A stretch of DNA of 64,000 bases from Candidatus Thermofontivivens primus (lineage in GTDB: Bacteria > Sysuimicrobiota > Sysuimicrobiia > Sysuimicrobiales > Thermofontiviventaceae). Numbering within the stretch: position 1 is the stretch's first letter; each line of letters begins with the position of its first letter. The DNA is taken from NCBI GenBank assembly GCA_031458695.1, contig JAVKJW010000007.1, forward strand, positions 28,219-92,218, given 5' to 3'. Both the position numbers and the translations under genes were made by a program. The notes under the pieces were generated by a model. The model worked only from the letters and a program-made list of their open reading frames with translations. It did no database searches and was not told the origin of the DNA. Shown here piece by piece: positions 38,548-58,517 of the stretch.

Positions 38548-39387
38548 ATGCGCGTCTATATTTCTGTCGATATGGAAGGGATTTCTGGCGTTGTCGCAGG
38601 GAAGCAAGTTCAGAGTGGTGAGAAGGACTATGAGCGATTCCGACGGCTCATGACCTTGGAGGCGAATGCAGCGGTTGAAGGTGCGCTGGATGCAGGTGCT
38701 TCCGAAGTCGTTGTGAGCGACGGTCATGGCCCGATGACCAATCTCCTAGTAGAAGAGTTGGACCCTGCGGCTCGTTTAATCAGTGGGAGCAATAGGTTGC
38801 TCGGCCAGATGGAGGGAATCGATAGAGGTTTCGATGTCGCCTTCTTCGTGGGGTACCACCAGAGGGAGGGAGGAAATGACGGCGTTCTTAATCATACGCT
38901 TTTGGGGAAGATCGTATATGAGGTTCGTGTGAATGGAGAACCCGCGGATGAAGCGATGATCAATGCGGGTTTGGCGGGAGCTTTCGGCGTGCCTATTGGT
39001 CTCGTCACGGGCGATCGAGGTGTGTGTGAAGAGGCACAGAAACGTTTTAGGGGTGTGGTTATTGCACCGGTCAAAGAAGGGCTCGATCGCTTCACGGGAA
39101 TAACGTTGACCCCGGAGAAAGCACGTGTGCTGATCCGTGAGAAAGCAGTTCAGGCTATTCACGCTACCCGTGCTGGCTTATTGTCGCCATACCGGGTTGA
39201 GGAGCCTGTAACGTTCGAGGTAGATTTCAAGCGGACATCTCCAGCACACATGTGTACCCTGTTTCCGGGAGTCGAACGCGTAAGCCCCAGGACAATCCGG
39301 ATCATCGAACACGACTATGTCCGCGGCTTTAAACTGTTTTGGGGTTGCCTCATTGTCGGTGCGGCGTCTTTTGAAGGCATTTTGTAG
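38548..39387 (+). CDS. M55-family D-aminopeptidase (DppA-type)
   Basis: MRVYISVDMEGISGV...VVSDGHG...FFVGYH are hallmark Peptidase_M55 motifs. Confidence 0.8.
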   Translation: MRVYISVDMEGISGVVAGKQVQSGEKDYERFRRLMTLEANAAVEGALDAGASEVVVSDGHGPMTNLLVEELDPAARLISGSNRLLGQMEGIDRGFDVAFFVGYHQREGGNDGVLNHTLLGKIVYEVRVNGEPADEAMINAGLAGAFGVPIGLVTGDRGVCEEAQKRFRGVVIAPVKEGLDRFTGITLTPEKARVLIREKAVQAIHATRAGLLSPYRVEEPVTFEVDFKRTSPAHMCTLFPGVERVSPRTIRIIEHDYVRGFKLFWGCLIVGAASFEGIL

Positions 39388-39978
39388 CGGTTCAACAGGA
39401 CTTCTGCAGCGACCATAAGTTCATCTCTTAGAGCTGTAGCGATGGAAGACATAGGTGACGGAGATCCTCCATTGATCGCTTTCGAGCTGCAGGCAGCTTT
39501 TCCCCTCACCCGCCGTTTTTCATAGATCATCGCTCGTCCTGAGCACAGCAAAGGATGTAGCCCAAACCTCCCGCCCGTTTTTGGCCATGACGAGGCGGAC
39601 AGTCCTGAGGCGCGGGAGGGGCACGATGCCTACCCAGGCCCAGGTGCGGCTCGCGATACGGCGGGGGAGCCATCTAGCCAATACGCCTACTGGCTGGGCG
39701 TGCCCCCTATAGGAGACCAGGACACAGCTCTTCTCCACCACATCGTCCAGGCACAGATAGCCAAGCTTCCCCAGGCGCTCCATGACCTGGACAAGGCTTG
39801 GCAGAACTTCTCTAAGGGAGCGGCTTCTTCATCCTCGAAGATTGGTGGCACGAGTGCCGCAGAGGAGCTTCATAATCTTTCCATCTCACCTTCAAACGTT
39901 CTTCATGCACTTCGGGTACTGTTTGGGCGTGGAGGGTTCAAACTCCGAGACAAAAATCTTCGAGAGGAGCGTGAGGTC

Positions 39979-40713
39979 ATGAGCAAAAAGGTTGCATGGA
40001 TCTTAGCCATCGCCGGTGTGCTGGCCATCGCCATTCCCGTGCTGGCACAGCCCTACTGGTTCGGACCCGGTATGATGGGGGGATATGGACCAGGAAGCCG
40101 TCCTGGTTACGGGTATGGGCCGGCGGTCCCTCCGACCGCCCAGCCTATCAGCATGGACCGTGCCATAGGGATCGCGAGATCGGCTGTCATCGCATACGGC
40201 AATCCGGACCTGGTACTCGATGAGATTATGGAGTTCACCCGCAACTTCTACGTTGTCGTCAAGGAGAAGAGCACCGGCATTGGGGCGTTTGAGCTTCTCG
40301 TCGACCGCTTCACTGGCGCAGTCTATCCTGAACCCGGTCCCAACATGATGTGGAATACCAAGTACGGCCACATGGGTGCATGGCACGGTGGATACGGCAT
40401 GATGGGCGGATACGGCATGATGGGTGGATACGGCTGGGGGCCCCGGTGGGGCTACCAGGCTCCCGCGCAGACGACACCCCAAACAGCTTTGCCCGTGACC
40501 AAGGAGCAGGCCATGCAGATCGCCAATCGCTACCTTGCAACAGTCATGCCCGGGGCCAAGGCTGAGGACGTCCATACATTCTACGGCTACTACACCGTCC
40601 ACGTTGCCCGCGGGGGCAAGATCGTGGGGATGCTGAGTGTCAACGGCTACACCGGTCAGGTTTGGTACCACAACTGGCACGGAGACTTCATCCGGGAGAA
40701 GGAACTCTCATGA
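39979..40713 (+). CDS. Secreted tandem PepSY-domain protein with Gly/Tyr/Met-rich linker
   Basis: Signal peptide (MSKKVAWILAIAGVLAIAIPVLAQP). Two PepSY-like modules (ISMDRAIGIARSAVIAYGNPD..FYVVVKEKSTG and VTKEQAMQIANRYL..YTVHVARGGKIVGMLSVNGYTGQVWY). They are separated by GYGMMGGYGMMGGYGWG repeats. RBS GAGGAG upstream. Confidence 0.55.
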   Translation: MSKKVAWILAIAGVLAIAIPVLAQPYWFGPGMMGGYGPGSRPGYGYGPAVPPTAQPISMDRAIGIARSAVIAYGNPDLVLDEIMEFTRNFYVVVKEKSTGIGAFELLVDRFTGAVYPEPGPNMMWNTKYGHMGAWHGGYGMMGGYGMMGGYGWGPRWGYQAPAQTTPQTALPVTKEQAMQIANRYLATVMPGAKAEDVHTFYGYYTVHVARGGKIVGMLSVNGYTGQVWYHNWHGDFIREKELS

Positions 40714-41072
40714 ACGAGCAGACGCTCCTGTGGATTGTGGTTGCAATCCTCGCCCTCTTCCTCCTCGGCCCGATCTTGAGTGGGCTTGGTTGGATGGGGG
40801 GATGGGGGCATGGATGGATGATGGGCCCCTGGATGATGGGGAGATGGTGTGGATGGGGCGGGCAGGCTCCTTGGGGTGCTCCATGGATCTTCTGGCTGCC
40901 CCCCTTAATTCAGCTCCTGCTCCTCATCGGCCTCGGGGTGGTCGTGATCGTGCTTTTGGCAAGATCACGACCCGCAGAAGGATCCCCCCTGGAGATCCTG
41001 CGGAAACGCTACGCAGCGGGCGAGATTTCCAAGGAGGAGTTCGAGGAAGCTCGTCGCATCCTGGGGGTATAG
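40710..41072 (+). CDS. SHOCT-domain membrane protein with Trp/Met/Gly-rich periplasmic-side tract
   Basis: ATGA-coupled to the PepSY gene. One or two TM segments, a GWMGGWGHGWMMGPWMMGRWCGWGG tract, and the C-terminal SHOCT signature ILRKRYAAGEISKEEFEEARRIL. Confidence 0.6.
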   Translation: MNEQTLLWIVVAILALFLLGPILSGLGWMGGWGHGWMMGPWMMGRWCGWGGQAPWGAPWIFWLPPLIQLLLLIGLGVVVIVLLARSRPAEGSPLEILRKRYAAGEISKEEFEEARRILGV

Positions 41073-41080
41073 CGGTATAG

Positions 41081-41116
41081 CCGTGTAGGGGCGACCCATG
41101 GGCCGCCCCTACACGG
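41081..41116 (+). terminator. Perfect 13-bp stem hairpin (CCGTGTAGGGGCG...CGCCCCTACACGG) after the SHOCT gene
   Basis: Seen directly in sequence 9 nt after the stop codon. No U-tract, as is common in GC-rich genomes. Confidence 0.4.
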
Positions 41117-41472
41117 CTGGCGCCTGTTCTCCAGGTTCGAGGAAGATCGCCTCGCCAGGACATCCCCTGACCACCGCCTCCTTCGACGCCAAGATTTTGT
41201 GCAAGGCGAATTGACTCTTGGAGTAGGGTCAGGCAGGGTATCCTCTCCCCGGGCAGGAGTTTGATGGTGTATAGTGAATCACCTCATAGAGGGGCTCCCT
41301 GCTGGTCTGGGCGGTCGTGTCTGTCCGAACCAGCAGCTCAGCTCGTCAGAGGAGGGAGAACTCCTGTTATTTTGCCGGCGGACGGAGGACACGATCTTGA
41401 ATTGGATCCCATTTGCTGTCCTATTTTTCACCAATATTGCCATAAGTCAGAAGGCAGGAAGGAGGGAGTGTG

Positions 41473-42690
41473 ATGGGAACGATGAGGCAGCGAATTCTGT
41501 TCCTGCTTCTGCCAGTTGTGATACTTCCCCTTCTCAGCATGGGACCCGTCTTCGCGCAAAACCCTATCGTGATCGGATCGTTCGGCCCATTCTCTCCTCC
41601 CGGGTCTATTGCCCAGTGGAGCGAGGCTGTGGATGGGATCAAGCTGGCCGTGGAGATGATCAACGAACGAGGAGGAGTTCTTGGCCGGCCTATTCGAGTC
41701 CAGTTTGAGGATAGTGCAGGGATTCCTGAGAGGGGGAGGGCTGCCGTTGAGAGATTGATCACCCAGCATAAAGTCCCGGCCATCGTGGGCGGGAACCACA
41801 GTTCGGTTTGCCTGGCCGTGACCGAGATCGTTCATGCGCGTCGCATCCCCTTCATCAATGTGAACTGCTGGGCAAACGCTATTCGGGAAAAGGGATACCC
41901 GGAGGTTTTTAACACAGCCGTCGTAAATGCCAGGATCGCTGTTGCTGGAGCCTACTTCATCAGGCATCTGGGGAGCAAGACCGTGGTCGCCTTTGCAGAG
42001 AATACGGACTTCGGGATAGGCTTAGCACAGGCGCTTGGTAGCCGGCTGAAGGCGATCGCCCCCGATGTACGATACACTTATACCGTATTGGATCGCGAAG
42101 CGAAAGATTTTGCCCCTGCCATCCTTGGTTTTGCCCAGAGGCCCCCAGATGTTGTCGTGACGATTATGGACCCGCCTGCGGGCTACATTATTATTAACCA
42201 ACTCAAGGAGTTCGGTGTGGCACCGACTCCACGAACATGGCTGCTTGATTTGGATGCCCTAGCAGAACTTCCAGACTTTTGGGACAACGTTGAGGAAGCA
42301 GGCAAATTCCTGACAGGAATCGCTCTTTTCCACCCCGCGATGAAGCTCACGGACCTTGGGCAAAGCGTTCGAGAGCGTCATAAGAAACGGACAGGTCGCG
42401 AGGCTAGCAGGCTGGTTTTCCAAGGATTTGATGCGATGTGGGTTATGGCCGATGCAATCAAGCGCGCAGGCTCGCTGGAGGCGGGAGCAATAATCAAAGC
42501 ACTAAGGGCAACAAACCTTGTGGGCACACGAGGGCGTATCTCGTTCAGCCTTGAACGGGGTCCCTTCTTCCAGCAATGGGTTGAGGTTCCCTTCGCAATC
42601 ATCCAGTTTACGGAGGTCAAACAGCCGCTTGAGCGATCAACAATCGTCTTCCCATTAGCTCAGGCGACCGGTACCCTCCGAAGACCTTAA
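41473..42690 (+). CDS. Branched-chain amino acid ABC transporter substrate-binding protein (LivK/Peripla_BP_6)
   Basis: Signal peptide and a type I periplasmic binding fold. GGAGGG lies 6 nt upstream of the ATG. Confidence 0.8.
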   Translation: MGTMRQRILFLLLPVVILPLLSMGPVFAQNPIVIGSFGPFSPPGSIAQWSEAVDGIKLAVEMINERGGVLGRPIRVQFEDSAGIPERGRAAVERLITQHKVPAIVGGNHSSVCLAVTEIVHARRIPFINVNCWANAIREKGYPEVFNTAVVNARIAVAGAYFIRHLGSKTVVAFAENTDFGIGLAQALGSRLKAIAPDVRYTYTVLDREAKDFAPAILGFAQRPPDVVVTIMDPPAGYIIINQLKEFGVAPTPRTWLLDLDALAELPDFWDNVEEAGKFLTGIALFHPAMKLTDLGQSVRERHKKRTGREASRLVFQGFDAMWVMADAIKRAGSLEAGAIIKALRATNLVGTRGRISFSLERGPFFQQWVEVPFAIIQFTEVKQPLERSTIVFPLAQATGTLRRP

Positions 42691-49282: not shown

Positions 49283-49726
49283 TCAAGGAGTCCCCAGCAC
49301 AATGAGTTGACCCTTCTGGCCGGCGTGATCCGGGGCACATCCAACTTTGGTACACGCGAACATGTAAATCCCCGGCCTTCTTGCCACGAACCGCACCGTT
49401 ACGGTCTGGCCTGGCGGGATCTCCTGGATCGAGACGTTGGCCTCGGGGAGGACAAACCCATGAGCACCCTCGGGGTCGGCGTTGGTAATCTTAAGGATCA
49501 CTGTGTCGCCAGCGTTGGCCACAATGGTCCCAGGGACCCACTTGCGGAGCTGCACCGCCTCCTCTGCCCCGAGCGGAACGAGAACCACGTTGAACTCCCT
49601 TTCCTGGGGGACTACAGGCCGGGAGGCGGACAGCGGGAGGGTATACGCCTGCCAGACTAAGTACCCCACGGTCAGGCTTCCCAGTACCACGAAGAAAACG
49701 ATCAACAGCCACCCACGCCCATTCAT
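49283..49726 (-). CDS. Membrane-anchored cupredoxin-like protein, CuA-motif variant (C-x4-C-x3-H-x2-Q)
   Basis: N-terminal TM anchor (GWLLIVFFVVLGSLTVGYLV) and a cupredoxin fold, with upstream His (GAHGF) and FACTKVGCAPDHAGQ. GGAGGG lies 7 nt before the ATG at 49726. Confidence 0.55.
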   Translation of the reverse strand: MNGRGWLLIVFFVVLGSLTVGYLVWQAYTLPLSASRPVVPQEREFNVVLVPLGAEEAVQLRKWVPGTIVANAGDTVILKITNADPEGAHGFVLPEANVSIQEIPPGQTVTVRFVARRPGIYMFACTKVGCAPDHAGQKGQLIVLGTP

Positions 49727-49759
49727 CTGTGCACCCTCCAATGGATGTTCATCCCCTGT

Positions 49760-50302
49760 TCATGGGGTCATCGCCCTCGATTGTTCTTCCCGGATGGCCT
49801 GAAGGAGAAGGTTCACCAGAAGGCCGTCTCGAACGGCATACTCCCTGGCGATCCTCACCAACCGACGGTCCAACGAAGAAGTCGTCTCATCCTTGCGCTC
49901 AAGGAGGGATCGGAGGTATCCCAGGGTTTTGTGCTGTTCCCATAACCATGCCTCCACGCCCTCCATCTCCGCGGTCTTCCATGCCAGGGCTTCCTGGTGA
50001 CACAAGAAGGCCATCCTTTCCACTACCCGGATGAGATCGCGTTTATCGCGTTTATTGCGTTCATTGCGTTTGTTGCGTTCATTGGGTTCATCGGGTTGAT
50101 CGAGTTTGAGCTGGAGCTGCCGGAGATCTTCTGTGAGATCTGTCAACTCCAGCCACTCCAAAACGTCCCGTAACGCTTGAAATCCGTATTTTTTGAAGTG
50201 CTCTAAGACCATCTCCCGGGTAGGATCTCCAATCAGCTCGGCCAGAACCGTATACGCCTGTGCACGTCGAAATGCCACGGTTCGGGTGTATGGGACGCTC
50301 AT
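49760..50302 (-). CDS. Hypothetical all-helical protein with in-frame (NERNKR)n charged repeat; possibly a TorD-like redox-enzyme chaperone
   Basis: About 180 aa, no Cys/His metal motifs. ATGA-coupled to the upstream cupredoxin gene. Chaperone assignment is speculative. Confidence 0.3.
   Translation of the reverse strand: MSVPYTRTVAFRRAQAYTVLAELIGDPTREMVLEHFKKYGFQALRDVLEWLELTDLTEDLRQLQLKLDQPDEPNERNKRNERNKRDKRDLIRVVERMAFLCHQEALAWKTAEMEGVEAWLWEQHKTLGYLRSLLERKDETTSSLDRRLVRIAREYAVRDGLLVNLLLQAIREEQSRAMTP
50037..50095 (-). repeat. Tandem 18-nt/9-nt in-frame repeat (AATGAACGCAA(C/T)AAACGC x2 plus GATAAACGC) encoding NERNKR-NERNKR-DKR
   Basis: Directly visible as CGTTTATTGCGTTCATTGCGTTTGTTGCGTTCATT on the plus strand. 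Confidence 0.6.
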
Positions 50303-50757
50303 GGTCGGTCCACAGAACCCCGGGGAGCGACGACCAACCATCCCGCCATCTTGCGTGCCGAGGGGGTCGAACGATCATGATCGCAAGGGATTGGGCAATA
50401 AAAAGGGAAACGTCCGGCACGCGTGGCCAGGAACTCTGTGGTCCTTTCTTCTCCCTCTGGGACGATCAGCGTGATCCCATAGTCAGGGATAGTGAACCCG
50501 TGGGTTCCTTCGACTGCCTGAAGACGCAGGCGAACCCGCTGCCCCACGACCGCATGGATCACCTCAGGCCTCCACTTCCCATCTCCGGCGATCAAGGAAA
50601 TGCCAGAAGCAGGGGAGATTTCCCCCCACCCGAGGAACCTCGCCAAAACGACCAGCGCCGGAAGGCCGACGACCACGGCCAGGACAAGGATCCACGCCAC
50701 CGCTTCACTGCGCCGCCGGTCCCGCCAGGTCTCCATTAGACTGTAGAAAGCGGCCAT
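50299..50757 (-). CDS. Membrane-anchored cupredoxin-like protein, degenerate CuA-like motif (C-x3-C-x-H ... M)
   Basis: TM anchor (AVAWILVLAVVVGLPALVVLARF), upstream His (GTHGF) and FYCPIPCDHD...KMAG. RBS GGAGGAGGG. Confidence 0.5.
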   Translation of the reverse strand: MAAFYSLMETWRDRRRSEAVAWILVLAVVVGLPALVVLARFLGWGEISPASGISLIAGDGKWRPEVIHAVVGQRVRLRLQAVEGTHGFTIPDYGITLIVPEGEERTTEFLATRAGRFPFYCPIPCDHDRSTPSARKMAGWLVVAPRGSVDRP

Positions 50758-51048: not shown

Positions 51049-51708
51049 TTATGGCTTGATGAGGCCCTTGCGGATGGCGTACCGGACGAGGTCAGCAGAG
51101 GTGTGGAGGCCGAGCTTCTCCATAATGTTTTTGCGGTGGGTCTCCACGGTGCGCACGCTCAAATACAACCGCTGGGCGATCTCCTGGTTGGTCAACCCTT
51201 CGGCGATGAGCCGCAATACCTCCTGTTCACGTTCCGTTAGCCCATCCTCCTCTCCTGCAGGCACCCGCCGCCGGTATTCCTCGAGAAGGGCTTTGGCCAC
51301 CGAGGGATAGAGGTAGGATTCATCTTTATAGACCGAGCGGATCGCCTGCACCAGCTCGCTGGCCGCTGCTCGCTTCACCACGTATCCCGAGGCCCCAAAA
51401 CCCAGCATGGGAAGGACATATTCCTTGTGGTCGTGCATGGTCAGGGCTAAGATGCGCACCTCGGGATGCGCGGCCTTGATCCTCCGTGTTGCTTCCAGAC
51501 CGCCAATGCCGGGCATGGCGATATCCATGATCACGACATCCGGACGTACCTCCTCCACCAGGGCAAGGGCCTGTTCCCCGTCTTCCGCCTCCCCGACCAC
51601 TTCGATGTCCGGTTGCGCCTCCAGGATCATCCTGATCCCTTCTCGGAACAGCGCATGGTCGTCCACGATGAGGATACGGATTGCGCGCTCAGACTGCGAC
51701 GCGAGCAT
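51049..51708 (-). CDS. Response regulator, NarL/FixJ (LuxR-type HTH) family
   Basis: REC domain (ILIVDDHALFREG...DVVIMDIAMPG) plus a LuxR HTH (LTEREQEVLRLIAEGLTNQEIAQRLYLSVRTVETHRKNIMEKLG). Confidence 0.85.
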   Translation of the reverse strand: MLASQSERAIRILIVDDHALFREGIRMILEAQPDIEVVGEAEDGEQALALVEEVRPDVVIMDIAMPGIGGLEATRRIKAAHPEVRILALTMHDHKEYVLPMLGFGASGYVVKRAAASELVQAIRSVYKDESYLYPSVAKALLEEYRRRVPAGEEDGLTEREQEVLRLIAEGLTNQEIAQRLYLSVRTVETHRKNIMEKLGLHTSADLVRYAIRKGLIKP

Positions 51709-53200
51709 CGGTCTCGACCTCCGCAGGAACAGGAATCTCCACGTACAGCCTGGTCCCACCCCCCGGCCTGGAGTGGATGTTGAACGTGCCACCCAGGAGG
51801 GTTGCCCGTTCCCTGATCCCAACAAGGCCCATCCCCCTCCGGGAGGCCCCTGGCCCTAGAACCTCAGCCAGCTCAAACCCTCTTCCATTGTCCTCGACGA
51901 AGATCACCAGGAGGGTCCCATCGAAGTCCAGGAGCACCCGGACGTGGCTGGCCTGGGCATGTTTGATCACATTGGTGATGGCCTCCTGGACGATCCGAAA
52001 CGTCGCCGTCTCCACCGTGCTGGGGAGCCTGCGTTCTAGGCCGTGCGCATGCAAGTCGTAGGTGATGCCGAGGGGGACGAGGTGGCTCTCCAGATATCCG
52101 GATACCGCTGGCACGAGCCCTAGGTCGTCGAGGACCCTGGGGCGGAGGTCGAAGATGATCTTGTGGATCTCCTCGAGGGTTTGGGTGGCGATCTCCCTGA
52201 GCCTCCGGAGCCGCTCGGCCACCTGGACCTCCTTCTTGGGGAGGGTATTCTCCAGGAACTCCAGGTTGACCACCAAGGTGGCGATGGCCTGGCTGGCTTC
52301 ATCGTGCAGTTCCCGGGCGATGCGCCGGCGCTCCTCCTCCTGAGCGGAGATGACCTTCGCGAGCAGCTCCTGCCGTTCCCGGTGATGCAATTCCAGCTCG
52401 CGGTTGGCCCGGGCCAGATCCCTCGTTCGCTCCGCAACCCTCTGCTCCAGGGTAGCGTAGGAATCCTGCAGGCGTTCGGCCATGCGGTTAAATGCCTCTG
52501 CGAGGCGTCCAACTTCGTCATTGGTGGCCACCTGCAACCGGACACCCAGGTTTCCGGAACCAATCGCCTCGGCCCCCTGTTGTAATTGCGCAATCGGCCT
52601 GGTGATCGCGCGGGTGAGGAGCAGCGCAAAGATCAAGCCCAGCAAAGCTGCAGAAGCGGCGGAAAGGAGGAGTTCGCGCTTAGCCTGGGCTTTGCTCTTC
52701 CTGGCGAGCTCCAACACACCGGCGGCCCGCTCGGCATGGAGCTGGTGGAACTGGTCCATCTGGGAGAAGATGGCATGGGTAGCCAGGGTCGTCTCCTCGC
52801 TCCTCCTTCCCCCCAGGACCCCGAGGTCAGAGGGACGATCCGCCCGCCCCTGAACCGCCTTATTCCAGGAGGCGAGAGCCTCCAGAAGGTCTGTCTCCCT
52901 GGAGTCGAGGCCATCGCGTTGAAGGGAACGTGCCAGGGCTCCGCTCAGGCTGTGGATCTCCCCCATCACAGCGTCCTGGTGCTTTCTCGCAGGTCCCCCC
53001 GAGAGCGAGGGCTCAAGGGCCCGGCTCATGGCCAGTTGGAGTTCCAGGAACAAGTCGTGTTCCTCGAAGATCCTGGCGACCGCATCTACCTGTCTCGCGA
53101 CGGCCTCCAGGCTGCGGATGGAGATGACCGCCACTGAGACCAGCAACCCTACCAGGACCAGGAACGCCGCGATGAGCTTGGTGCCTAAGGAAAGCCTCAT
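51689..53200 (-). CDS. Sensor histidine kinase, NarX-like topology (TM, periplasmic helical sensor, TM, HAMP, HisKA_3, HATPase)
   Basis: Two TM segments flank an about 150-aa helical domain. HAMP (AEAIGSGNLGVRLQVATNDEVGRLAEAFNRMAERL), H-box (ELHDEASQAIATL) and the HATPase G-boxes are present. Confidence 0.85.
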   Translation of the reverse strand: MRLSLGTKLIAAFLVLVGLLVSVAVISIRSLEAVARQVDAVARIFEEHDLFLELQLAMSRALEPSLSGGPARKHQDAVMGEIHSLSGALARSLQRDGLDSRETDLLEALASWNKAVQGRADRPSDLGVLGGRRSEETTLATHAIFSQMDQFHQLHAERAAGVLELARKSKAQAKRELLLSAASAALLGLIFALLLTRAITRPIAQLQQGAEAIGSGNLGVRLQVATNDEVGRLAEAFNRMAERLQDSYATLEQRVAERTRDLARANRELELHHRERQELLAKVISAQEEERRRIARELHDEASQAIATLVVNLEFLENTLPKKEVQVAERLRRLREIATQTLEEIHKIIFDLRPRVLDDLGLVPAVSGYLESHLVPLGITYDLHAHGLERRLPSTVETATFRIVQEAITNVIKHAQASHVRVLLDFDGTLLVIFVEDNGRGFELAEVLGPGASRRGMGLVGIRERATLLGGTFNIHSRPGGGTRLYVEIPVPAEVETDARVAV

Positions 53201-53206
53201 CCCCTT

Positions 53207-53671
53207 CTACTTCACCACCAGGGTCCCCTTCATCCCTCGCTCGTAGTGGTCCGGCAGGAGGCAACCGATCTCAAAGGTCCCCTTCTTCCGGGGGGTGAAC
53301 TTCACCTCCGCCTTCTTCCCCGCTTTTACCTCCACTTCAAAAATCCCCATGCCCTCTACCTCGGCTTCAGAGGTTTCTACCTTCACTTCCAGATCCTTGA
53401 AGTAAGACTGCTCCTCTGCCCACTCGTGGAGCTCGTCCATGTCGATACCCGGCTTTGGAAGCGCGTACACCATGAACTCGTGGGTGACCTTCCCTTTGTT
53501 GACCAGGACGATCTCGGCAGGAACCCCTGCGGTCAATGTGACCTGCTTCGGGCGGAAGTAATACTCACCCATCTCCAGGGTCACTTTCTGGGCCTTCGGT
53601 GCAGCCGACCCTCCTTGCATCAGAGCAAGGGCGATCACCATAGCGATAGCTAGGATGGTTACTTTTCGCAT
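53207..53671 (-). CDS. Secreted type-1 (blue) copper cupredoxin, plastocyanin/auracyanin-like
   Basis: Signal peptide (MRKVTILAIAMVIALALMQGGSAA). T1 Cu ligands H (THEF), C-x4-H-x4-M (GCLLPDHYERGM). Confidence 0.7.
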   Translation of the reverse strand: MRKVTILAIAMVIALALMQGGSAAPKAQKVTLEMGEYYFRPKQVTLTAGVPAEIVLVNKGKVTHEFMVYALPKPGIDMDELHEWAEEQSYFKDLEVKVETSEAEVEGMGIFEVEVKAGKKAEVKFTPRKKGTFEIGCLLPDHYERGMKGTLVVK

Positions 53672-53732: not shown

Positions 53733-54140
53733 TTAGGGTTCCACGATCACCTCCCCTTGCATCTCCGTATGCTCTGGGCTGCATATCACTGTGCAATAGA
53801 AAGGAAAGGTCCCGGTCTTTTGAGGGACAAATTCGATGATCTGGTAGCTCCCGGGGGTGATCGGCCCGCTCTTTACCTTTAACCCCCGGATACGCAGCCC
53901 GTGGGTAACGTCGGCGCTTGTCACCTTCAACCGGACCTTCTCCCCCCTCCTCACCACGATCTCTGAGGGGAGCCATCCCCCTGCCTCATGGGTCCTAGCG
54001 ATGATGGTGATCTCTCCAGAGGCAGAAGCCACGGCCGGATAATAGATGAACTGATAGGCCAGGATGACCACAGGTATCCCCACTACCGTGAGGAGGACAA
54101 GAAGGAACGCAGTCCACTCAAGACGCCGCATCCTCATCAC
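53733..54140 (-). CDS. Membrane-anchored CuA-motif cupredoxin (C-x3-C-S-x2-H-x2-M)
   Basis: TM anchor (WTAFLLVLLTVVGIPVVILAY), upstream His (VTHGL) and YCTVICSPEHTEM, a canonical binuclear CuA ligand spacing as in COX II/NosZ. Confidence 0.65.
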   Translation of the reverse strand: MMRMRRLEWTAFLLVLLTVVGIPVVILAYQFIYYPAVASASGEITIIARTHEAGGWLPSEIVVRRGEKVRLKVTSADVTHGLRIRGLKVKSGPITPGSYQIIEFVPQKTGTFPFYCTVICSPEHTEMQGEVIVEP

Positions 54141-54141
54141 C

Positions 54142-55599
54142 TCACCCGAGATAGAGCCACAGGAAGAGCACCGTCACACCTGCCAGGTATGCAGAGAGGG
54201 GGACGAGCGCCCGCCTGGCCTTGGTGGATGGGGAGAAGTTTTGCCTGGCAATGGTATCCCCCACCTTGATGGAGAGAACAAGGCCCAGAAGGAGCGTGGG
54301 AACCTGGATGTAGGGCAACAGGTGCGGTGCATAAGGCGTCCAGGGATACCCTTTAGTCCCGAAGAGGTCCCATCCCCAGCCGAATGGATCAGAGAGGACC
54401 GAGAGCGCATAGGAGATGTTGGGGAGCACGAACGAGAAGCTGAAGGCGATCCATCCCGCGAGCCCTAGGGGAACCAGGGTGTAGGCGTAGTCCACGAACA
54501 GCTTCTTCAGGTCAGGGCGGCTTCCACCGGCGAAGACGCGGGAGAGCCAGGTAAATACAAGGTGAAGGGCTGGGGCCGCGACTAGGATGGATCCCAGGAA
54601 GATCGCAGCATACAGGAGAAGGCCAGAGAACGAGGTGAAGTTGGCCCAATCCTTGATCCTTCCCCAAGGCCCCAGCATGACGATGGAGTACATGATCGCC
54701 GCCCCTAACATGATGAAGGCCTTGTAGGCCTCATCCAGCTTGCGTCCCTTCTCCACTTGGAGGTCCTGAAAGAAGGGACGAGTGCGGATGGTGATGTTCT
54801 CGTAAGGACAGGCCTTGATGCACTCGGTGCACAAGAGACAATAGGTGTTCCGCTCCATGGGCGCTCCGGGGAACTCGAAGTTGGGGCAACCGTACCCTCC
54901 CACGCCCCCGACCCGAAGGCTTGCCTCGGTGCTCCCCCGGAAGCAGGCCTTGAACTGGCACTGCCGGCAGACCTCTGCATCCACCCGCCGCACCTCCACG
55001 GGAGCCGCCATGGAGTAAAGCCCCAGGAACCCTCCCACCGGGCAGAGGTAGCGGCAGAAGGTCCTTCGCTCAAACACCAGGTGGGTGACCGCGGCGATGA
55101 TTACGAGCCCCAGGAGAACGGCTCCAGTGACGATGGGACGGGTGGTGAGGACAGCGCTGGTGAGAGCGATGGATGCGAATCCGAAATTGGCTACCCACAG
55201 GTTCCGCAGCCCCTTGGGCCACTTTCGTGCCAGGCCAAAGGTTTTCGGCTTCCAGAGGATGAACGCCCGGCGCTGCATCCACTCCCCGACGGCGGGGATC
55301 GGACACATGGCACACCAGATCCTCGCCCCGAAGGGCACGAGGACCAGGATCAGCAGGGCCCACCAGACGATCCAGACGAAGATGATGGCGAAGTTCTTGG
55401 CCCCAATCGGGGTCCCCAAGAACCCAGCCATGATCACGATGGTGAAGACGAACAGGTTGGGGAGGATCAGGGCGAACTGCAGCCACCGCTGGCGAACGAG
55501 CCATCGCACAGGACGATATCCCAGGAGGTCTTTGCGCCAGGCAACCTCCTGGGGCGGACGCAGGATAGGACGCGCAATCGCAGTGCTACGCTGTGCCAT
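54142..55599 (-). CDS. NapH/MauN-type membrane polyferredoxin (2 x CxxCP plus 2 x [4Fe-4S] ferredoxin motifs) with extra C-terminal TM domain
   Basis: WCAMCP and FCRYLCP motifs on TM-flanking loops. Ferredoxin clusters CRQCQFKAC and CLLCTECIKACP. About 5 additional C-terminal TM helices. Confidence 0.65.
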   Translation of the reverse strand: MAQRSTAIARPILRPPQEVAWRKDLLGYRPVRWLVRQRWLQFALILPNLFVFTIVIMAGFLGTPIGAKNFAIIFVWIVWWALLILVLVPFGARIWCAMCPIPAVGEWMQRRAFILWKPKTFGLARKWPKGLRNLWVANFGFASIALTSAVLTTRPIVTGAVLLGLVIIAAVTHLVFERRTFCRYLCPVGGFLGLYSMAAPVEVRRVDAEVCRQCQFKACFRGSTEASLRVGGVGGYGCPNFEFPGAPMERNTYCLLCTECIKACPYENITIRTRPFFQDLQVEKGRKLDEAYKAFIMLGAAIMYSIVMLGPWGRIKDWANFTSFSGLLLYAAIFLGSILVAAPALHLVFTWLSRVFAGGSRPDLKKLFVDYAYTLVPLGLAGWIAFSFSFVLPNISYALSVLSDPFGWGWDLFGTKGYPWTPYAPHLLPYIQVPTLLLGLVLSIKVGDTIARQNFSPSTKARRALVPLSAYLAGVTVLFLWLYLG

Positions 55600-56146
55600 C
55601 GGTAGCCTCCTCGCTTCGATCTCGGATTTCCTCTCCACGGCGCCACAGCATCAAGACCGTCCCACCCGCCGCGAGCACGGTCAGGGCGAGCGCTCCCCAC
55701 AGGGTGTAGTTGGGGCCTACAACCACCTCGCCGATCATGAACGGGTGCAGGTTCCCGCAGATCACCGAGCAACGGTACCGGATCTTTCCAGGGCGATTGG
55801 CCACAAAGGAGACCACCGTCTCCTGCCCCGGGTAGACCTTCGCGTTGATGCCGTACCCATCGATGTAGAGACCGTGGACGACATCCTCGCTCGTGACCCG
55901 CAGCGTCACGCGGTCACCCAGCCTTACCCGGATGCGCGGGGGGCTGTAGGCAAACTGCCTGGCGGTGATGGTGAATTCTCGCTCCCGCCCGCCCGCCGGT
56001 CCGGCCGCTTGCGACACATTGCTGACCACAAGGATGTCGAGAAGCAACAGAAAGAAGACAAAGGAGAGAACCAGCGAGAGGCCCGTCAAGAACCTTGCCC
56101 TCCCACCGTGAGATCTTAACCCCATACGCCGTGTGTGTCGGAACAC
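55586..56146 (-). CDS. Membrane-anchored CuA-motif cupredoxin (C-x3-C-G-x2-H-x2-M, identical spacing to COX II)
   Basis: TM anchor (FLTGLSLVLSFVFFLLLLDILVV), upstream His (VVHGL) and RCSVICGNLHPFM. A second hydrophobic helix at the C-terminus. Confidence 0.65.
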   Translation of the reverse strand: MFRHTRRMGLRSHGGRARFLTGLSLVLSFVFFLLLLDILVVSNVSQAAGPAGGREREFTITARQFAYSPPRIRVRLGDRVTLRVTSEDVVHGLYIDGYGINAKVYPGQETVVSFVANRPGKIRYRCSVICGNLHPFMIGEVVVGPNYTLWGALALTVLAAGGTVLMLWRRGEEIRDRSEEATDGTA

Positions 56147-56329: not shown

Positions 56330-56983
56330 TCAGGAATCAGGTGGACGCAGGAGGCCTTTGCGGGCGGCGTAGGCGACCGCCTCCGCCCTGTTGCGCAGGT
56401 GGAGCTTATCGAGGATGTTCTTCATATGGAACTTGACGGTGTTCTCGCTGATCCCAAGGGAGGTGGCGATCTCCCTGTTCGTTGCACCCCCGGCAACGAG
56501 CTGTAGCACTTCCTTCTCCCGCTCGGTCAGTTCCTCTTCCAGGACCTCTCGGGGCCGCTGACCCCCGTGCGTCCTGGCGAACTCCTCCAAGATCTTGCCG
56601 GCCAGCTCCCGGGAGATGACCGCTTCCCCCCGGGCGGCGCTCGTGAGGAGATCGAAGAACTCCTCGGCCTTCAGGTTCTTCAGGAGGTAACCCTGGGCTC
56701 CGCTTTTGATGGCGTCAAAAAGGTCGCGGTCGTCGTCGGAGACAGTAAGAATCACGATCTTCACCTGGGGGAATTCGGCCTTGATGAGGCGGGTTGCCTC
56801 CAGGCCGCTGCATCGAGGCATCCGGATGTCCATGAGAACGACATCCGGTTGGAGCTGGCGCGTCTTCTCCAGGGCCTCCAGGCCGTCGTTGGCCTCCCCG
56901 ACCACCTCCATCCCCCTCGCCTGGAGGAGGCTTTTGATCCCGTCCCTGAACAAGGGATGGTCGTCGGCAAGCAGGATCCTCAT
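56330..56983 (-). CDS. Response regulator, NarL/FixJ (LuxR-type HTH) family
   Basis: REC (ILLADDHPLFRDG...DVVLMDIRMP) plus LuxR HTH (LTEREKEVLQLVAGGATNREIATSLGISENTVKFHMKNILDKL). ATGA-coupled to the kinase. Confidence 0.85.
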   Translation of the reverse strand: MRILLADDHPLFRDGIKSLLQARGMEVVGEANDGLEALEKTRQLQPDVVLMDIRMPRCSGLEATRLIKAEFPQVKIVILTVSDDDRDLFDAIKSGAQGYLLKNLKAEEFFDLLTSAARGEAVISRELAGKILEEFARTHGGQRPREVLEEELTEREKEVLQLVAGGATNREIATSLGISENTVKFHMKNILDKLHLRNRAEAVAYAARKGLLRPPDS

Positions 56984-58356
56984 ACTTCGGCACCCTCCCT
57001 CCTTGCCGTCCTTACAGGGACAGAGACGATCACCTTGGTCCCCCGAAATGGAGCCGTTTCGAGACGGAACGTGCCACCCACAGCTTCGGCACGCTCCCGC
57101 ATGCTCTGGAGGCCAAACCTTGGCCAGGGGCTCGGAGGAAGGTGCTGGGGGTCAAAGCCTCTTCCGTTATCCTCGATGATGATCTGGACCTCCTCTGCTC
57201 CCTCGAGAAAGCGTACCTTGACGGCGGTGGCCTGGGCGTGCTTGCGGACGTTGGTTAGGGCCTCCTGCACAATGCGCAGGAGCTGCACCTCCACCTCCGG
57301 GGGAAACGGAAGAGACCCCGGCTCGCCCTCTATCTCCACGGCGATCCCATAAAGCTGTCTGTAGTGATAGAAGTACTCCTTGAGGACAGACATCAGGGTC
57401 CGATCCGGGCTCAGGGAGGTCCGCAACCCGAGGATTGCCTCCCGGATGTCGGCATACACCTCACGGGCCATGGACTCAAGCTGGGCGAGCTGGGATGAAG
57501 CTTCTTCTATCCGCCCCGCGTTGAGAAGCTCGCGGACCGCCTGGGCCTTGGTGTTCACGTACCCGAGAACCTGTGCCAGTCCATCGTGCATCTCCCTGGC
57601 GATGCGCTCACGTTCTTCCAGAATCGCCAGGCTCTGCACCTGGGCGTGGAGCCGGGCGTTCTCAATGGCGATCGCTGCCTGGTTGGCCAAGCTGCTCAGG
57701 ACTGTCTCCGCCTCCCGGTCAAAGCCATTCGGGCGGCGGCTCCCTGCCATGAGGATCCCTATCACCTTGGATCCAGTACACAGGGGGATGGCGAAAATCT
57801 CCTTCATCTCAGGAGCGGGAAACATTTTCCAAACGTCCGCATGGGGATCGGTGAACCTCAGAACCTGGCCGTCCCCCCCAAAGCAGGGGATCCATGAAGG
57901 TTCTATGGGAAGACGGACGTACGAAAGATTACGGGAATTGTCGACCAGAAGTCGCCAGGTGATCTCTTGGTGCTCATCAAGAAGCCCGAGAGCAGTGACG
58001 TCGCTGTTGAGAAGCCGGTGCGTGCTGACCACCACGGTCCGGATCACGTGATCCAGGTCCAGCTTGGCGGAAATCTCCGTGCCAATCTGGTAGAGGGCCT
58101 GGGTGAGCGCATTTCGAGCTGCCAGCTCCTTGTTGCGGGCAACGAGCTCTTCCTCCATGCGATCGATGATCCCAAAGACAAGGGAAGAAAATATGTGGGC
58201 CCCCACAAGCATGGCAAACAGGACCATCAGGCTAGAAGCCCAGACAGGAAGGTAGTGATCCACTGGAGAGCTGTGCCGGATATATTCAAAGATAGCAATG
58301 AACAGCGCCGGCCCCCAGGTTGTCAGGAGACGCAGGTTTCGCTTGTTCGTAAACAT
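56980..58356 (-). CDS. GAF-domain sensor histidine kinase (TM x2, GAF, HisKA_3, HATPase)
   Basis: N-terminal TM helices, a GAF-like region (the VTALGLLDE..AIPLCTGSKVIGILMAG region), H-box (REMHDGLAQVLG) and HATPase (EDNGRGF). The start is uncertain (58356 or 58395). Confidence 0.8.
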   Translation of the reverse strand: MFTNKRNLRLLTTWGPALFIAIFEYIRHSSPVDHYLPVWASSLMVLFAMLVGAHIFSSLVFGIIDRMEEELVARNKELAARNALTQALYQIGTEISAKLDLDHVIRTVVVSTHRLLNSDVTALGLLDEHQEITWRLLVDNSRNLSYVRLPIEPSWIPCFGGDGQVLRFTDPHADVWKMFPAPEMKEIFAIPLCTGSKVIGILMAGSRRPNGFDREAETVLSSLANQAAIAIENARLHAQVQSLAILEERERIAREMHDGLAQVLGYVNTKAQAVRELLNAGRIEEASSQLAQLESMAREVYADIREAILGLRTSLSPDRTLMSVLKEYFYHYRQLYGIAVEIEGEPGSLPFPPEVEVQLLRIVQEALTNVRKHAQATAVKVRFLEGAEEVQIIIEDNGRGFDPQHLPPSPWPRFGLQSMRERAEAVGGTFRLETAPFRGTKVIVSVPVRTARREGAEV

Positions 58357-58486
58357 ACACGGACAGAGGGTTCGGTTCTGCCTATATTGTGGCATGGATT
58401 CGCCCACCCGTCCATCCGCCCTTCGCCGGATGGGGCATCCGCTGGAGATCTGATGGTTTAACGAACCCCGGTATTTCAAGAGGGAC

Positions 58487-58517
58487 CCCCGGCAAAAGTC
58501 CAAGACTTTTGCCGGGG
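58487..58517. other. Near-perfect 13-bp stem hairpin (CCCGGCAAAAGTC-CAA-GACTTTTGCCGGG)
   Basis: Seen in sequence between the permease remnant and the kinase gene. Possible terminator or insulator. Confidence 0.35.

Follow-up and report, generated by a model that had tools for sequence, protein, structure and literature searches.

A methionine-rich PepSY-like/SHOCT gene pair as a candidate extracytoplasmic soft-metal module

The subject of this study is a pair of genes in a 64,000-nucleotide (nt) stretch of the genome of Candidatus Thermofontivivens primus (contig JAVKJW010000007.1, positions 28,219 to 92,218), here called the window. The first gene encodes a putatively secreted protein with two PepSY-like domains, the second a small membrane protein with a SHOCT domain, and both products carry disordered tracts rich in methionine and glycine. 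From the sequence comparisons described below, we consider it about 50% probable that the pair forms an extracytoplasmic module that binds, buffers, hands over or senses a metal ion of the Cu(I)/Ag(I) type. A preliminary description of the locus had suggested an envelope module for metal buffering or signaling. This idea is favored by the conservation of the tracts, by the pairing of the two genes across genomes, by sensor kinases carrying such tracts, by fusions with cupredoxins and by the copper genes nearby; its metal-binding part is deduced from these patterns.

The PepSY-like protein belongs to a large family. A word-indexed search returned more than 7,600 homologues; when searched exhaustively with a profile, the family comprised 1,662 clusters (50% identity) at E <= 1e-3 and 654 at E <= 1e-30. 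The hosts are bacteria and archaea and include, among others, Chloroflexota, Armatimonadota, Fraserbacteria, Acetothermia, Bathyarchaeia, Methanophagales (ANME-1) and Methanoperedens. The members are named 'hypothetical protein' or 'PepSY domain-containing protein' in the source databases, and neither Pfam nor NCBIfam holds a model of the family. It is previously uncharacterized, and we found no literature on the family, on its pairing with SHOCT proteins or on the Met tracts of the kinases described below.

Conservation was determined from two alignments, of 31 and 110 sequences. In the larger one, E105, E118, G120, P121, W125, N126, F201, T206, M218, H231 and W233 were invariant, and conservation of at least 90% was found for N122, M123, M124, K128, Y129, G130 and M132 in the tail of domain 1, for G146, M147, M148 and G149 in the linker, for W229, Y230, H234 and G235 in domain 2, and for M32 and G34 in the N-terminal tract. 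The His of KYGHM (H131) was invariant in the 31-sequence alignment only. These positions form the motifs PEPGPNMMWN-KYG-M, GMMG and WYHxWHG, of which PNMMWN, GMMG and WYHxWHG are near-invariant. The linker contained at least one MM dipeptide in 84-96% of the members and up to 12 of them, with a mean Met content of 17%, and the N-terminal tract contained MM in ~81%. The Met-rich tracts are a hallmark of the family, with variable copy number, which speaks against the refuting case named earlier, that the repeats are lacking or poorly kept in orthologues. A paralogue in a sister genome (P0001, 81% identical) differs in lacking exactly one GYGMMG unit. A scan of the longest members for known metal-binding domains showed a rhodanese domain at the C-terminus of P0209 (377 amino acids, aa); in P0183 (409 aa), the PepSY-like domains are separated by an inserted helical region of ~170 aa.

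In the window protein, Tandem Repeats Finder detected an 18-nt unit in 2.5 copies (96% matches, 40390-40434) that encodes GGYGMM GGYGMM GGYG, so that the GYGMM repeats announced between the two PepSY modules do lie there. Cys is absent from the mature protein, which contains 14 Met, 6 His and 7 Trp residues and has an isoelectric point (pI) of 8.3, with 15 Asp and Glu versus 16 Lys and Arg; the acidic surface characteristic of LanP and UipA is not found. Its signature is four MM dipeptides in a Gly-rich setting and one HM. The MxxM motifs, which had been called typical of Cu(I)/Ag(I) sites, are absent, and MM dipeptides between glycines occur instead. No Pfam or NCBIfam match to SilE/PcoE, CusF or CopC/PcoC was obtained at E <= 1, and the fold differs from theirs. 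The first protein of the pair is a divergent member of the PepSY superfamily and the second a member of SHOCT; neither belongs to a known copper-binding family, and the two would resemble such a family in their working only.

Secretion of the PepSY-like protein is predicted from its Sec-type N-terminus, where KK and a hydrophobic core of 16 residues precede a cleavage site of the type VLA/QP, read between MSKKVAWILAIAGVLAIAIPVLA and QP; AlphaFold places a helix at residues 4-14 of this signal peptide. The AlphaFold model was built on 110 homologues, with a predicted local distance difference test score (pLDDT) of 78 and a predicted template modeling score of 0.73. It shows two domains of one helix and four strands (residues ~55-125 and 172-244), each with pLDDT >90; the first consists of helix 59-73 and strands 78-117, and the second of helix 175-189 and four to five strands within 193-242. 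The PepSY fold, a helix on a four-stranded antiparallel sheet, is thus present twice, and hhalign aligned domain 1 with domain 2 as homologues (95%, E 3e-8). Among solved structures, Foldseek ranked the C-terminal PepSY repeats of YpeB first (prob 0.99, E 2.6e-3) and FoxB and YpmB next, at low template modeling scores of ~0.2. The Pfam PepSY model (PF03413) gave the window protein 15.6 bits (E 0.02) versus a cut-off of 24, at residues 172-227 only, so the profile does not recognize this protein by itself. When the homologues were scanned singly, PepSY was matched by 38 of the 110 at E <= 0.01 (best 5e-8), and YPEB_PepSY1-2 by 18. The name 'PepSY-PepSY' given earlier is therefore correct at the level of fold and superfamily, as the AlphaFold, Foldseek and hhalign results and the 38 matching homologues indicate, although the window sequence stays below the Pfam cut-off; the family is a divergent relative of PepSY. 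An NCBIfam scan of the protein gave no match, and a profile search of PDB sequences gave chance matches only (a single-chain variable fragment, scFv, and ATP-citrate lyase), so that no solved PepSY protein was recognized by sequence. When both proteins were scanned with Pfam and NCBIfam, the only additional matches were low-complexity ones to DUF5320 and Chorion_2, which were taken as artefacts of composition.

The assignment of the second protein to SHOCT (PF09851) was upheld: residues 93-118 of its 120 score 38.2 bits, where the cut-off is 27, and the match lies within the last 50 residues and has the two short helices expected. The invariant SHOCT residues in alignment A6 were I96, L97, R100, Y101, A102, A103, G104, E105, I106, S107, E109 and F111, and NCBI names an equally long member of its cluster 'SHOCT domain-containing protein [Armatimonadota bacterium]'. 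In the AlphaFold model, which rests on a shallow alignment, the aromatic tract GWMGGWGHGWMMGPWMMGRWCGWGG is present as described before; it is flanked by two predicted transmembrane (TM) helices rather than lying beside a single one. The whole loop, SGLGWMGGWGHGWMMGPWMMGRWCGWGGQAPWGAPW, has 36 aa, is disordered and contains 12 Gly, 8 Trp, 5 Met, 1 His and 1 Cys. Because RSR follows the second helix, the positive-inside rule predicts that both termini are inside and the loop outside, which would place the loop in the same compartment as the secreted protein.

Pairing of the two genes was examined in 80 loci from species-representative genomes plus the loci of the sister genome, giving 81 non-redundant loci (cited below by L numbers), in which SHOCT open reading frames (ORFs) were located by a small iterated hidden Markov model. 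A SHOCT membrane protein was the immediate same-strand neighbor in 24 of the 81 loci, where ~2 were expected, in bacteria as well as archaea. SHOCT filled 24 of 161 neighbor slots versus 15 of 1,154 other genes (binomial P 2e-18), and according to Pfam it was the commonest family among the ±3 neighbors (7 + 7 + 9 of 447 ORFs, 79 loci). The SHOCT gene is mostly upstream, with a 4-nt overlap in eight loci, which is the gene order opposite to that of the window; L058 is the sole other locus with the family gene first and SHOCT second. In all paired loci the partner, with two TM helices or one, has a Met/Gly(/Trp)-rich segment ahead of or between the helices, such as LMGPSMMGPGMMGPGMMG and GWGWMMGPGMMGRWGGWGWG, and tracts of the MMGP(G/W)MMG type occur in partner loops. 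The N-terminal tract of the PepSY-like protein was short when a SHOCT gene adjoined (median 32 aa, MM in 22%), and long and Met-rich when none did (~100 aa, MM in 88%; Mann-Whitney P 3e-6). This difference suggests that the Met tract comes either from the protein itself (in cis) or from its partner (in trans).

Four Chloroflexota loci (L001:7094-7623, L002:29-445, L036:4015-4644, L074:12996-13948) contain two or three tandem short SHOCT genes with a single TM helix and N-terminal MMGFG... segments, located after a response regulator/histidine kinase pair and before or near the family gene. SHOCT was formerly DUF2078 (Eberhardt et al. 2013); it has no established function, and its oligomerization was not borne out by experiment (PMC3581485). 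For SHOCT-like domains, a role as membrane-proximal anchor in PSP-type envelope signaling systems has been predicted (PMC11237479).

The connection with copper comes from the flanks of these loci. In 17 of the 81 loci, the fetched flanks contain a gene for a copper-type ATPase, a cupredoxin or a multicopper-oxidase-like, HMA or CopG protein, and two further loci have a Zn/Cd-type ATPase there. Copper-handling genes are few per genome among thousands of genes, and on this general expectation the enrichment is clear. P-type ATPase ORFs, fragments included, occurred in 13 loci; among the ten full-length P1B ATPases, typed with NCBIfam, eight matched the copper-translocating model best (TIGR01511) and two were of the Zn/Cd type. 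The copper-type ones have CPC..MxxSS or CPH signatures, and the typed ATPases span at least five phyla, including Chloroflexota, Fraserbacteria, Acetothermia, Bathyarchaeia and Methanophagales. CopZ also recurs near the family genes, the sister-genome paralogue P0001 adjoins a CopG-like DUF411 gene and FeoB, and in L007 a DUF302 gene adjoins a CPH-type ATPase. Precedents exist in the literature: silver induced a SHOCT membrane protein of Haloferax (PMC10694973), the copper islands of Cuniculiplasma and Mia14 have SHOCT and DUF302 genes beside them (PMC5498576), the two-PepSY periplasmic protein LanP binds lanthanides and the PepSY protein UipA binds U and Fe (PMC9988556), and the disordered, Met/His-rich SilE acts as a periplasmic Ag+ sponge (PMC5008109).

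Cupredoxin-like ORFs were found in ten loci other than the window, in seven of them within ~1.3 kb, and two are fused to a Met-rich tract. The first (L047:2234-2872) consists of a TM helix, a GPGMMGSGMMGQMMQG tract (GRGMMSGQSYGPGMMGSGMMGQMMQG...GMGMMHGAMMG) and a cupredoxin with a C-E-P-H-P-Y-M site, and lies 29 bp after two tandem family genes and ahead of a kinase with a Met-rich loop. The second (L058:10722-11366) consists of a TM helix, a SHOCT-like segment, another TM helix, GWGMHGRWGMPGMSMPHMGSW and a cupredoxin (Cupredoxin_1 48 bits, Copper-bind 26 bits); its cluster comprises a family gene with a downstream SHOCT gene, a response regulator and histidine kinase, two further cupredoxins and an HMA protein. 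These architectures, in which a TM helix and a poly-Met/Gly tract are joined to a type-1-like cupredoxin, appear to be undescribed.

The copper-protein cluster of the window, which had been put forward as a neighbor of the pair, contains a cassette of two cupredoxins and an Fe-S membrane protein. This link gains from other genomes, since a syntenic cassette (L036:9767-12659; 53%, 49% and 41% identity) lies 1.25 kb from the family gene of L036, and the same cupredoxin lies 0.9 kb from that of L077. In the window, however, the cluster is 8-15 kb from the pair and on the opposite strand, and within the window alone the link is weak. Another window ORF (53207-53671) matches L058:11452-11946 at 42%; it is one of three more cupredoxin-like ORFs near the cassette, together with 49283-49741 and 50299-50757. 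The Fer4_5 protein of the cassette resembles the NapH/NosR/CcoG group, of which CcoG is a putative copper reductase (PMC13038864).

The copper-related neighbor of P0001 deserves separate mention. In the sister genome (GCA_030550015.1, L081:10956-11441), two called genes downstream of P0001, of 51 aa and of 90 aa with DUF411/CopG, form one frame split by a TGA (...DIYFSPT-stop-GCCRSYADYL...). The TGA falls at what we take to be the first Cys of the CopG-type C-x-C-C, and a stable hairpin lies ~16 nt past it (70-nt fold -33.7 kcal/mol, z -3.1). From its sequence, the gene would encode either a selenocysteine-containing CopG-like protein or be a pseudogene.

Genes for signaling are likewise frequent next to the family. 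OmpR-type response regulators and HAMP/HisKA kinases recur: among the 447 neighbor ORFs, 14 matched HATPase_c and at least 12 matched Response_reg. Of the 14 membrane histidine kinases that adjoin family genes, nine contain MM tracts in the sensor loop between TM1 and TM2 (Met 4-17%), for example GMMMPGMTGQPGGMMGPGMMSDMM, APMGMMMPGMTGQPGGMMGPGMMSDMM, PSGMMGPGMMGPDMGPGMMWNW and TGMGMGMMGDMDMMGMMG. These observations could also be explained by a general accessory of envelope-stress or two-component systems that has no metal ligand, in which the PepSY-like and SHOCT proteins are co-sensors or modulators of membrane kinases and the Met/Gly/Trp tracts are a flexible 'velcro' between partner proteins or at the membrane interface. 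The frequency of OmpR-type pairs, the same tracts in the kinases, the enrichment of Trp and Gly, which fits an interfacial segment, and the anchor role proposed for SHOCT-like domains in PSP-type systems (PMC11237479) agree with such an accessory. Nevertheless, it leaves unexplained the fusion of the tract to cupredoxins, the recurrence of copper ATPases, CopZ and CopG nearby, and the conserved Met together with the fixed His and Trp of the folded part, and no kinase adjoins the pair in the window. We regard this explanation as unlikely, if still one to be reckoned with.

A lower probability is given to a buffer or sensor of oxidants, in which exposed Met residues would be converted to Met-sulfoxide by reactive oxygen or chlorine species and thereby protect or inform the envelope of the mostly anaerobic hosts. 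Periplasmic Met oxidation is the signal for HprSR of E. coli, the exposed tracts average 17% Met, and the neighbors include thioredoxin-fold proteins (~6) and pyridine-nucleotide disulfide oxidoreductases (~6), besides the rhodanese fusion of P0209. Against this, no methionine sulfoxide reductase was among the 25 most frequent neighbor families of any of the three sets, which is weak evidence, and the conserved His and Trp positions, the fusions to copper proteins and the ATPases are not accounted for.

It is still less probable that a hard metal (Fe2+, Zn2+, a lanthanide or uranyl) is bound by conserved glutamates of the PepSY-like domains, with the Met tracts being incidental. The invariance of E105 and E118 and the conservation of E82, E85 and E96 (at least 90%) are in line with this, as are the FeoB gene beside the paralogue, the two Zn/Cd-type ATPases and the precedents of LanP and UipA (PMC9988556). 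However, the mature protein is not acidic, with the near balance of charges given above and a pI far from the 4.6 of LanP, the conserved residue of the low-complexity tracts is Met and not Asp or Glu, and copper-type neighbors outnumber the others. Finally, a classical PepSY role as peptidase inhibitor or chaperone, perhaps for the Peptidase_M55 or beta-lactamase-family products of the operon upstream of the pair, is hardly credible and largely refuted by the neighborhood data, for although PepSY was defined in propeptides of M4 peptidases and the pair does follow that operon, the gap is 590 bp, M55 is a family of cytoplasmic D-aminopeptidases, no peptidase family recurs among the 447 neighbor ORFs of the 79 loci, and the context is absent at the sister-genome paralogue and at 80 other loci.

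Under the preferred reading, a module for Cu(I)/Ag(I)-type ions, the bicistronic unit would put disordered segments rich in Met, Trp and Gly, together with a double PepSY-like scaffold bearing Met, His and Trp, on the outer face of the cytoplasmic membrane. The ion that the two proteins would bind together is a soft (thiophilic) one, Cu(I) being the likeliest and Ag(I) its chemical analogue. The secreted protein would take up the ion in the periplasm through its thioether-rich tracts and possibly also through a site made from PNMMWN..GHM and WYHxWHG; the SHOCT partner would present a similar tract in its TM1-TM2 loop, so that the ion could be shared or handed over at the membrane surface, and the cytoplasmic SHOCT hairpin might hold an oligomer together or report occupancy to the inner side. 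The role of the module would be buffering, delivery or sensing of envelope copper, which we propose because in other genomes the same parts occur with two-component operons of Met-loop kinases, with copper exporters and with cupredoxins. Gene structure, predicted topology, domain duplication, motif conservation, pairing, the complementary occurrence of the tract, the cupredoxin fusions and the neighborhood counts are observed; from them we infer that a metal is bound, which metal it is, that the proteins touch each other and that SHOCT may signal.

Several observations weigh against this proposal. About 64 of the 81 related loci have no copper gene in the fetched flanks, and, SHOCT aside, the genes most often found nearby are unspecific ones, encoding ArsR-type regulators that lack the classical CVC site, two-component proteins, UbiE-like methyltransferases and thioredoxins. 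The statistics of pairing ignore shared ancestry, and as the SHOCT-paired loci are mostly archaeal, the independent events may be fewer than the loci, possibly few. The SHOCT-like segment of the L058 fusion scores 20 bits, below the Pfam cut-off of 27. The mature window protein, besides its basic pI and its lack of Cys and of MxxM, has no MxM and no HxxM/MxxH. In the window, the pair is adjoined by no regulator, exporter or chaperone, its flanks being Dpp-type and Liv-type ABC operons, and the two histidine kinases of the window (51689-53200 and 56980-58503) were rejected as cognate sensors, as they have no Met tracts.

A wider claim can be made only tentatively, namely that the Gly-flanked poly-Met tract is the ligand-binding element common to the PepSY-like proteins, SHOCT proteins, kinase loops and cupredoxin fusions of a widespread, unrecognized extracytoplasmic soft-metal system of bacteria and archaea. 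On this claim, SHOCT would for the first time be placed in a functional context, forming the cytoplasmic end of a membrane-spanning device that captures or reports Cu(I)/Ag(I). The family is large and occurs in lineages important for the anaerobic cycling of carbon and methane (Bathyarchaeia, ANME-1/Methanophagales, Methanoperedens, Chloroflexota, Armatimonadota). Should the copper reading be true, it would represent a new class of envelope copper-handling protein in organisms whose copper homeostasis is barely known. The abundant functionless SHOCT membrane proteins would also gain a role, and Gly-flanked MM tracts would be a simple signature for predicting the ligand of a set of orphan sensor kinases. 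The reading is testable with short synthetic peptides and one soluble 22-kDa protein.

Table 1. Features of the PepSY-like/SHOCT pair and of the cupredoxin cassette in the window
Feature	Position	Strand	Basis or remark
Gene for the putatively secreted two-domain PepSY-like protein	39979-40713	+	ATG start, TGA stop; 244 aa; stop included
Predicted Sec-type signal peptide, aa 1-24, MSKKVAWILAIAGVLAIAIPVLA	39979-40050	+	read from sequence
N-terminal Gly/Tyr/Pro/Met-rich disordered tract, aa 25-54, with GPGMMGG	40051-40140	+	pLDDT <50 at residues 17-43
PepSY-like domain 1 and conserved tail PEPGPNMMWNTKYGHM, aa 55-137	40141-40389	+	AlphaFold, hhalign
Met-rich linker with (GGYGMM) repeat, aa 138-165	40390-40473	+	pLDDT <50 at 138-164
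PepSY-like domain 2, ending in WYHNWHG, aa 166-244	40474-40710	+	AlphaFold; weak Pfam PepSY match
ATGA start/stop overlap of both genes	40710-40713	+	translational coupling, predicted from sequence
2-TM SHOCT membrane protein gene	40710-41072	+	120 aa; stop included
TM1	40716-40778	+	AlphaFold helix 3-23
Extracytoplasmic Gly/Trp/Met-rich loop (predicted)	40779-40886	+	loop pLDDT <50
TM2	40887-40964	+	AlphaFold helix 60-85
SHOCT domain, aa 93-118, predicted cytoplasmic helix hairpin	40986-41063	+	Pfam; helices 93-102, 108-117
GC-rich hairpin	41078-41119	+	folding, z -4.3
COX2-like cupredoxin	53733-54140	-	window cassette
Fer4_5 polytopic Fe-S membrane protein	54142-55638	-	window cassette
CuA-like cupredoxin, CSVICGNLHPFM	55586-56146	-	window cassette

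The two genes are joined by the ATGA overlap that had been reported (Table 1). A Shine-Dalgarno-like GAGGAG..GAGGT lies 5′ of the PepSY-like ATG. Since a gap of 590 bp separates the pair from the Dpp-type ABC/beta-lactamase-family (beta-lactamase2)/Peptidase_M55 operon upstream, and ~400 bp from the Liv-type ABC operon downstream, it looks like a bicistronic unit of its own. Synteny is kept in the sister assembly GCA_030550015.1, where the PepSY-like protein is 100% identical and is called as a 244-aa gene. No promoter-like site for the pair came out of a sigma-70 promoter scan, no dyad resembling an operator was seen when the 590-bp gap was searched for inverted repeats, and an Rfam scan of 39000-41700 gave nothing above any cut-off. 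The PepSY-like frame remains open for 93 further codons in the 5′ direction, to a GTG at 39700 (39700-39978), and a 225-aa ORF (40003-40680, minus strand) covers the gene in antisense. The latter was rejected as a gene, its matches in other loci being the reverse strand of the family gene only, and both seem to be accidental products of a sequence that is rich in GC and in repeats.

The pair had also been said to end in a strong hairpin, and such a hairpin does begin 6 nt past the SHOCT stop codon (RNA centroid -36.1 and minimum free energy -40.9 kcal/mol; 0 of 200 shuffles equally stable). The stem is very stable, but the U-tract is missing: because there is no T-run, the hairpin is not a canonical intrinsic (Rho-independent) terminator, and a terminator consensus scan did not call it. 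It is likely a transcript end or a stabilizer of the mRNA, and when considered as a repeat element it occurred in a single copy within the window.

Two other groups of neighbors recur in the other loci. A UbiE-like class I S-adenosylmethionine methyltransferase of ~210 aa with the motif ARYDRIAPVYDLME occurs beside the family gene, ArsR-type regulators and P1B ATPases (11 among the ±3 neighbors according to Pfam, 17 loci within 4 kb; for example L007:8923-9690, L016:6961-7599, L060:8472-9101 and L071:4673-5305). In Bathyarchaeia and Methanoperedens (L010, L014, L020, L023, L030, L037, L041, L043, L076), a conserved string of genes follows the family gene, encoding an ArsR-type regulator that lacks the CVC metal site, a TM protein of 59 aa and a secreted one of ~240 aa, sometimes with an added membrane-anchored DUF7343/MarR-like protein. 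The secreted ~240-aa protein has no Pfam match and contains VTYNPGVTxGQYVKYGNFVG.

The pair was compared with known systems. LanP (lanpepsy, Mfla_0908) and UipA are small, with two PepSY domains and no enzymatic motif, like the window protein, and exported, as is predicted for it; they bind extracytoplasmic metal (PMC9988556). They differ in being strongly acidic and in binding hard cations through Asp and Glu, in contrast to the window protein with its pI of 8.3, its conserved Met, His and Trp and its Met-rich disordered tracts, and they are without a SHOCT partner. SilE and PcoE share with it the export, which is predicted for the window protein, and disordered Met(/His)-rich segments as the proposed metal element, and they are encoded with exporters and two-component systems (PMC5008109). 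They are, however, wholly disordered and use HxxM/MxxH, unlike the Gly-flanked MM on a folded double PepSY-like scaffold of the window protein, to which they have no sequence relationship. The near-invariant M123, M124, W125, M132, H231, W233 and H234 of the window protein resemble the Met/His(/Trp) site chemistry of CusF and CopC/PcoC. The sites of those proteins consist of Met thioethers and His, with a capping Trp in CusF, but they are built on OB or Ig-like folds, in contrast to the PepSY-like alpha+beta fold of the window protein, and no homology was detected.

The reductases of the PepSY_TM group (FoxB, PiuB, CrpH) also combine a periplasmic PepSY with metal traffic, including copper (PMC13038864), and FoxB was the second Foldseek match. 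These enzymes bind haem and are polytopic in the membrane, whereas the window protein, soluble or tethered, has neither a TM bundle nor haem motifs. The partner is a bona fide member of the small SHOCT membrane proteins, with a C-terminal SHOCT of two helices and a TM region upstream of it, and it departs from them in the pairing with a PepSY-like protein and in the Met-rich loop predicted to face outward, for which we found no description in the literature.

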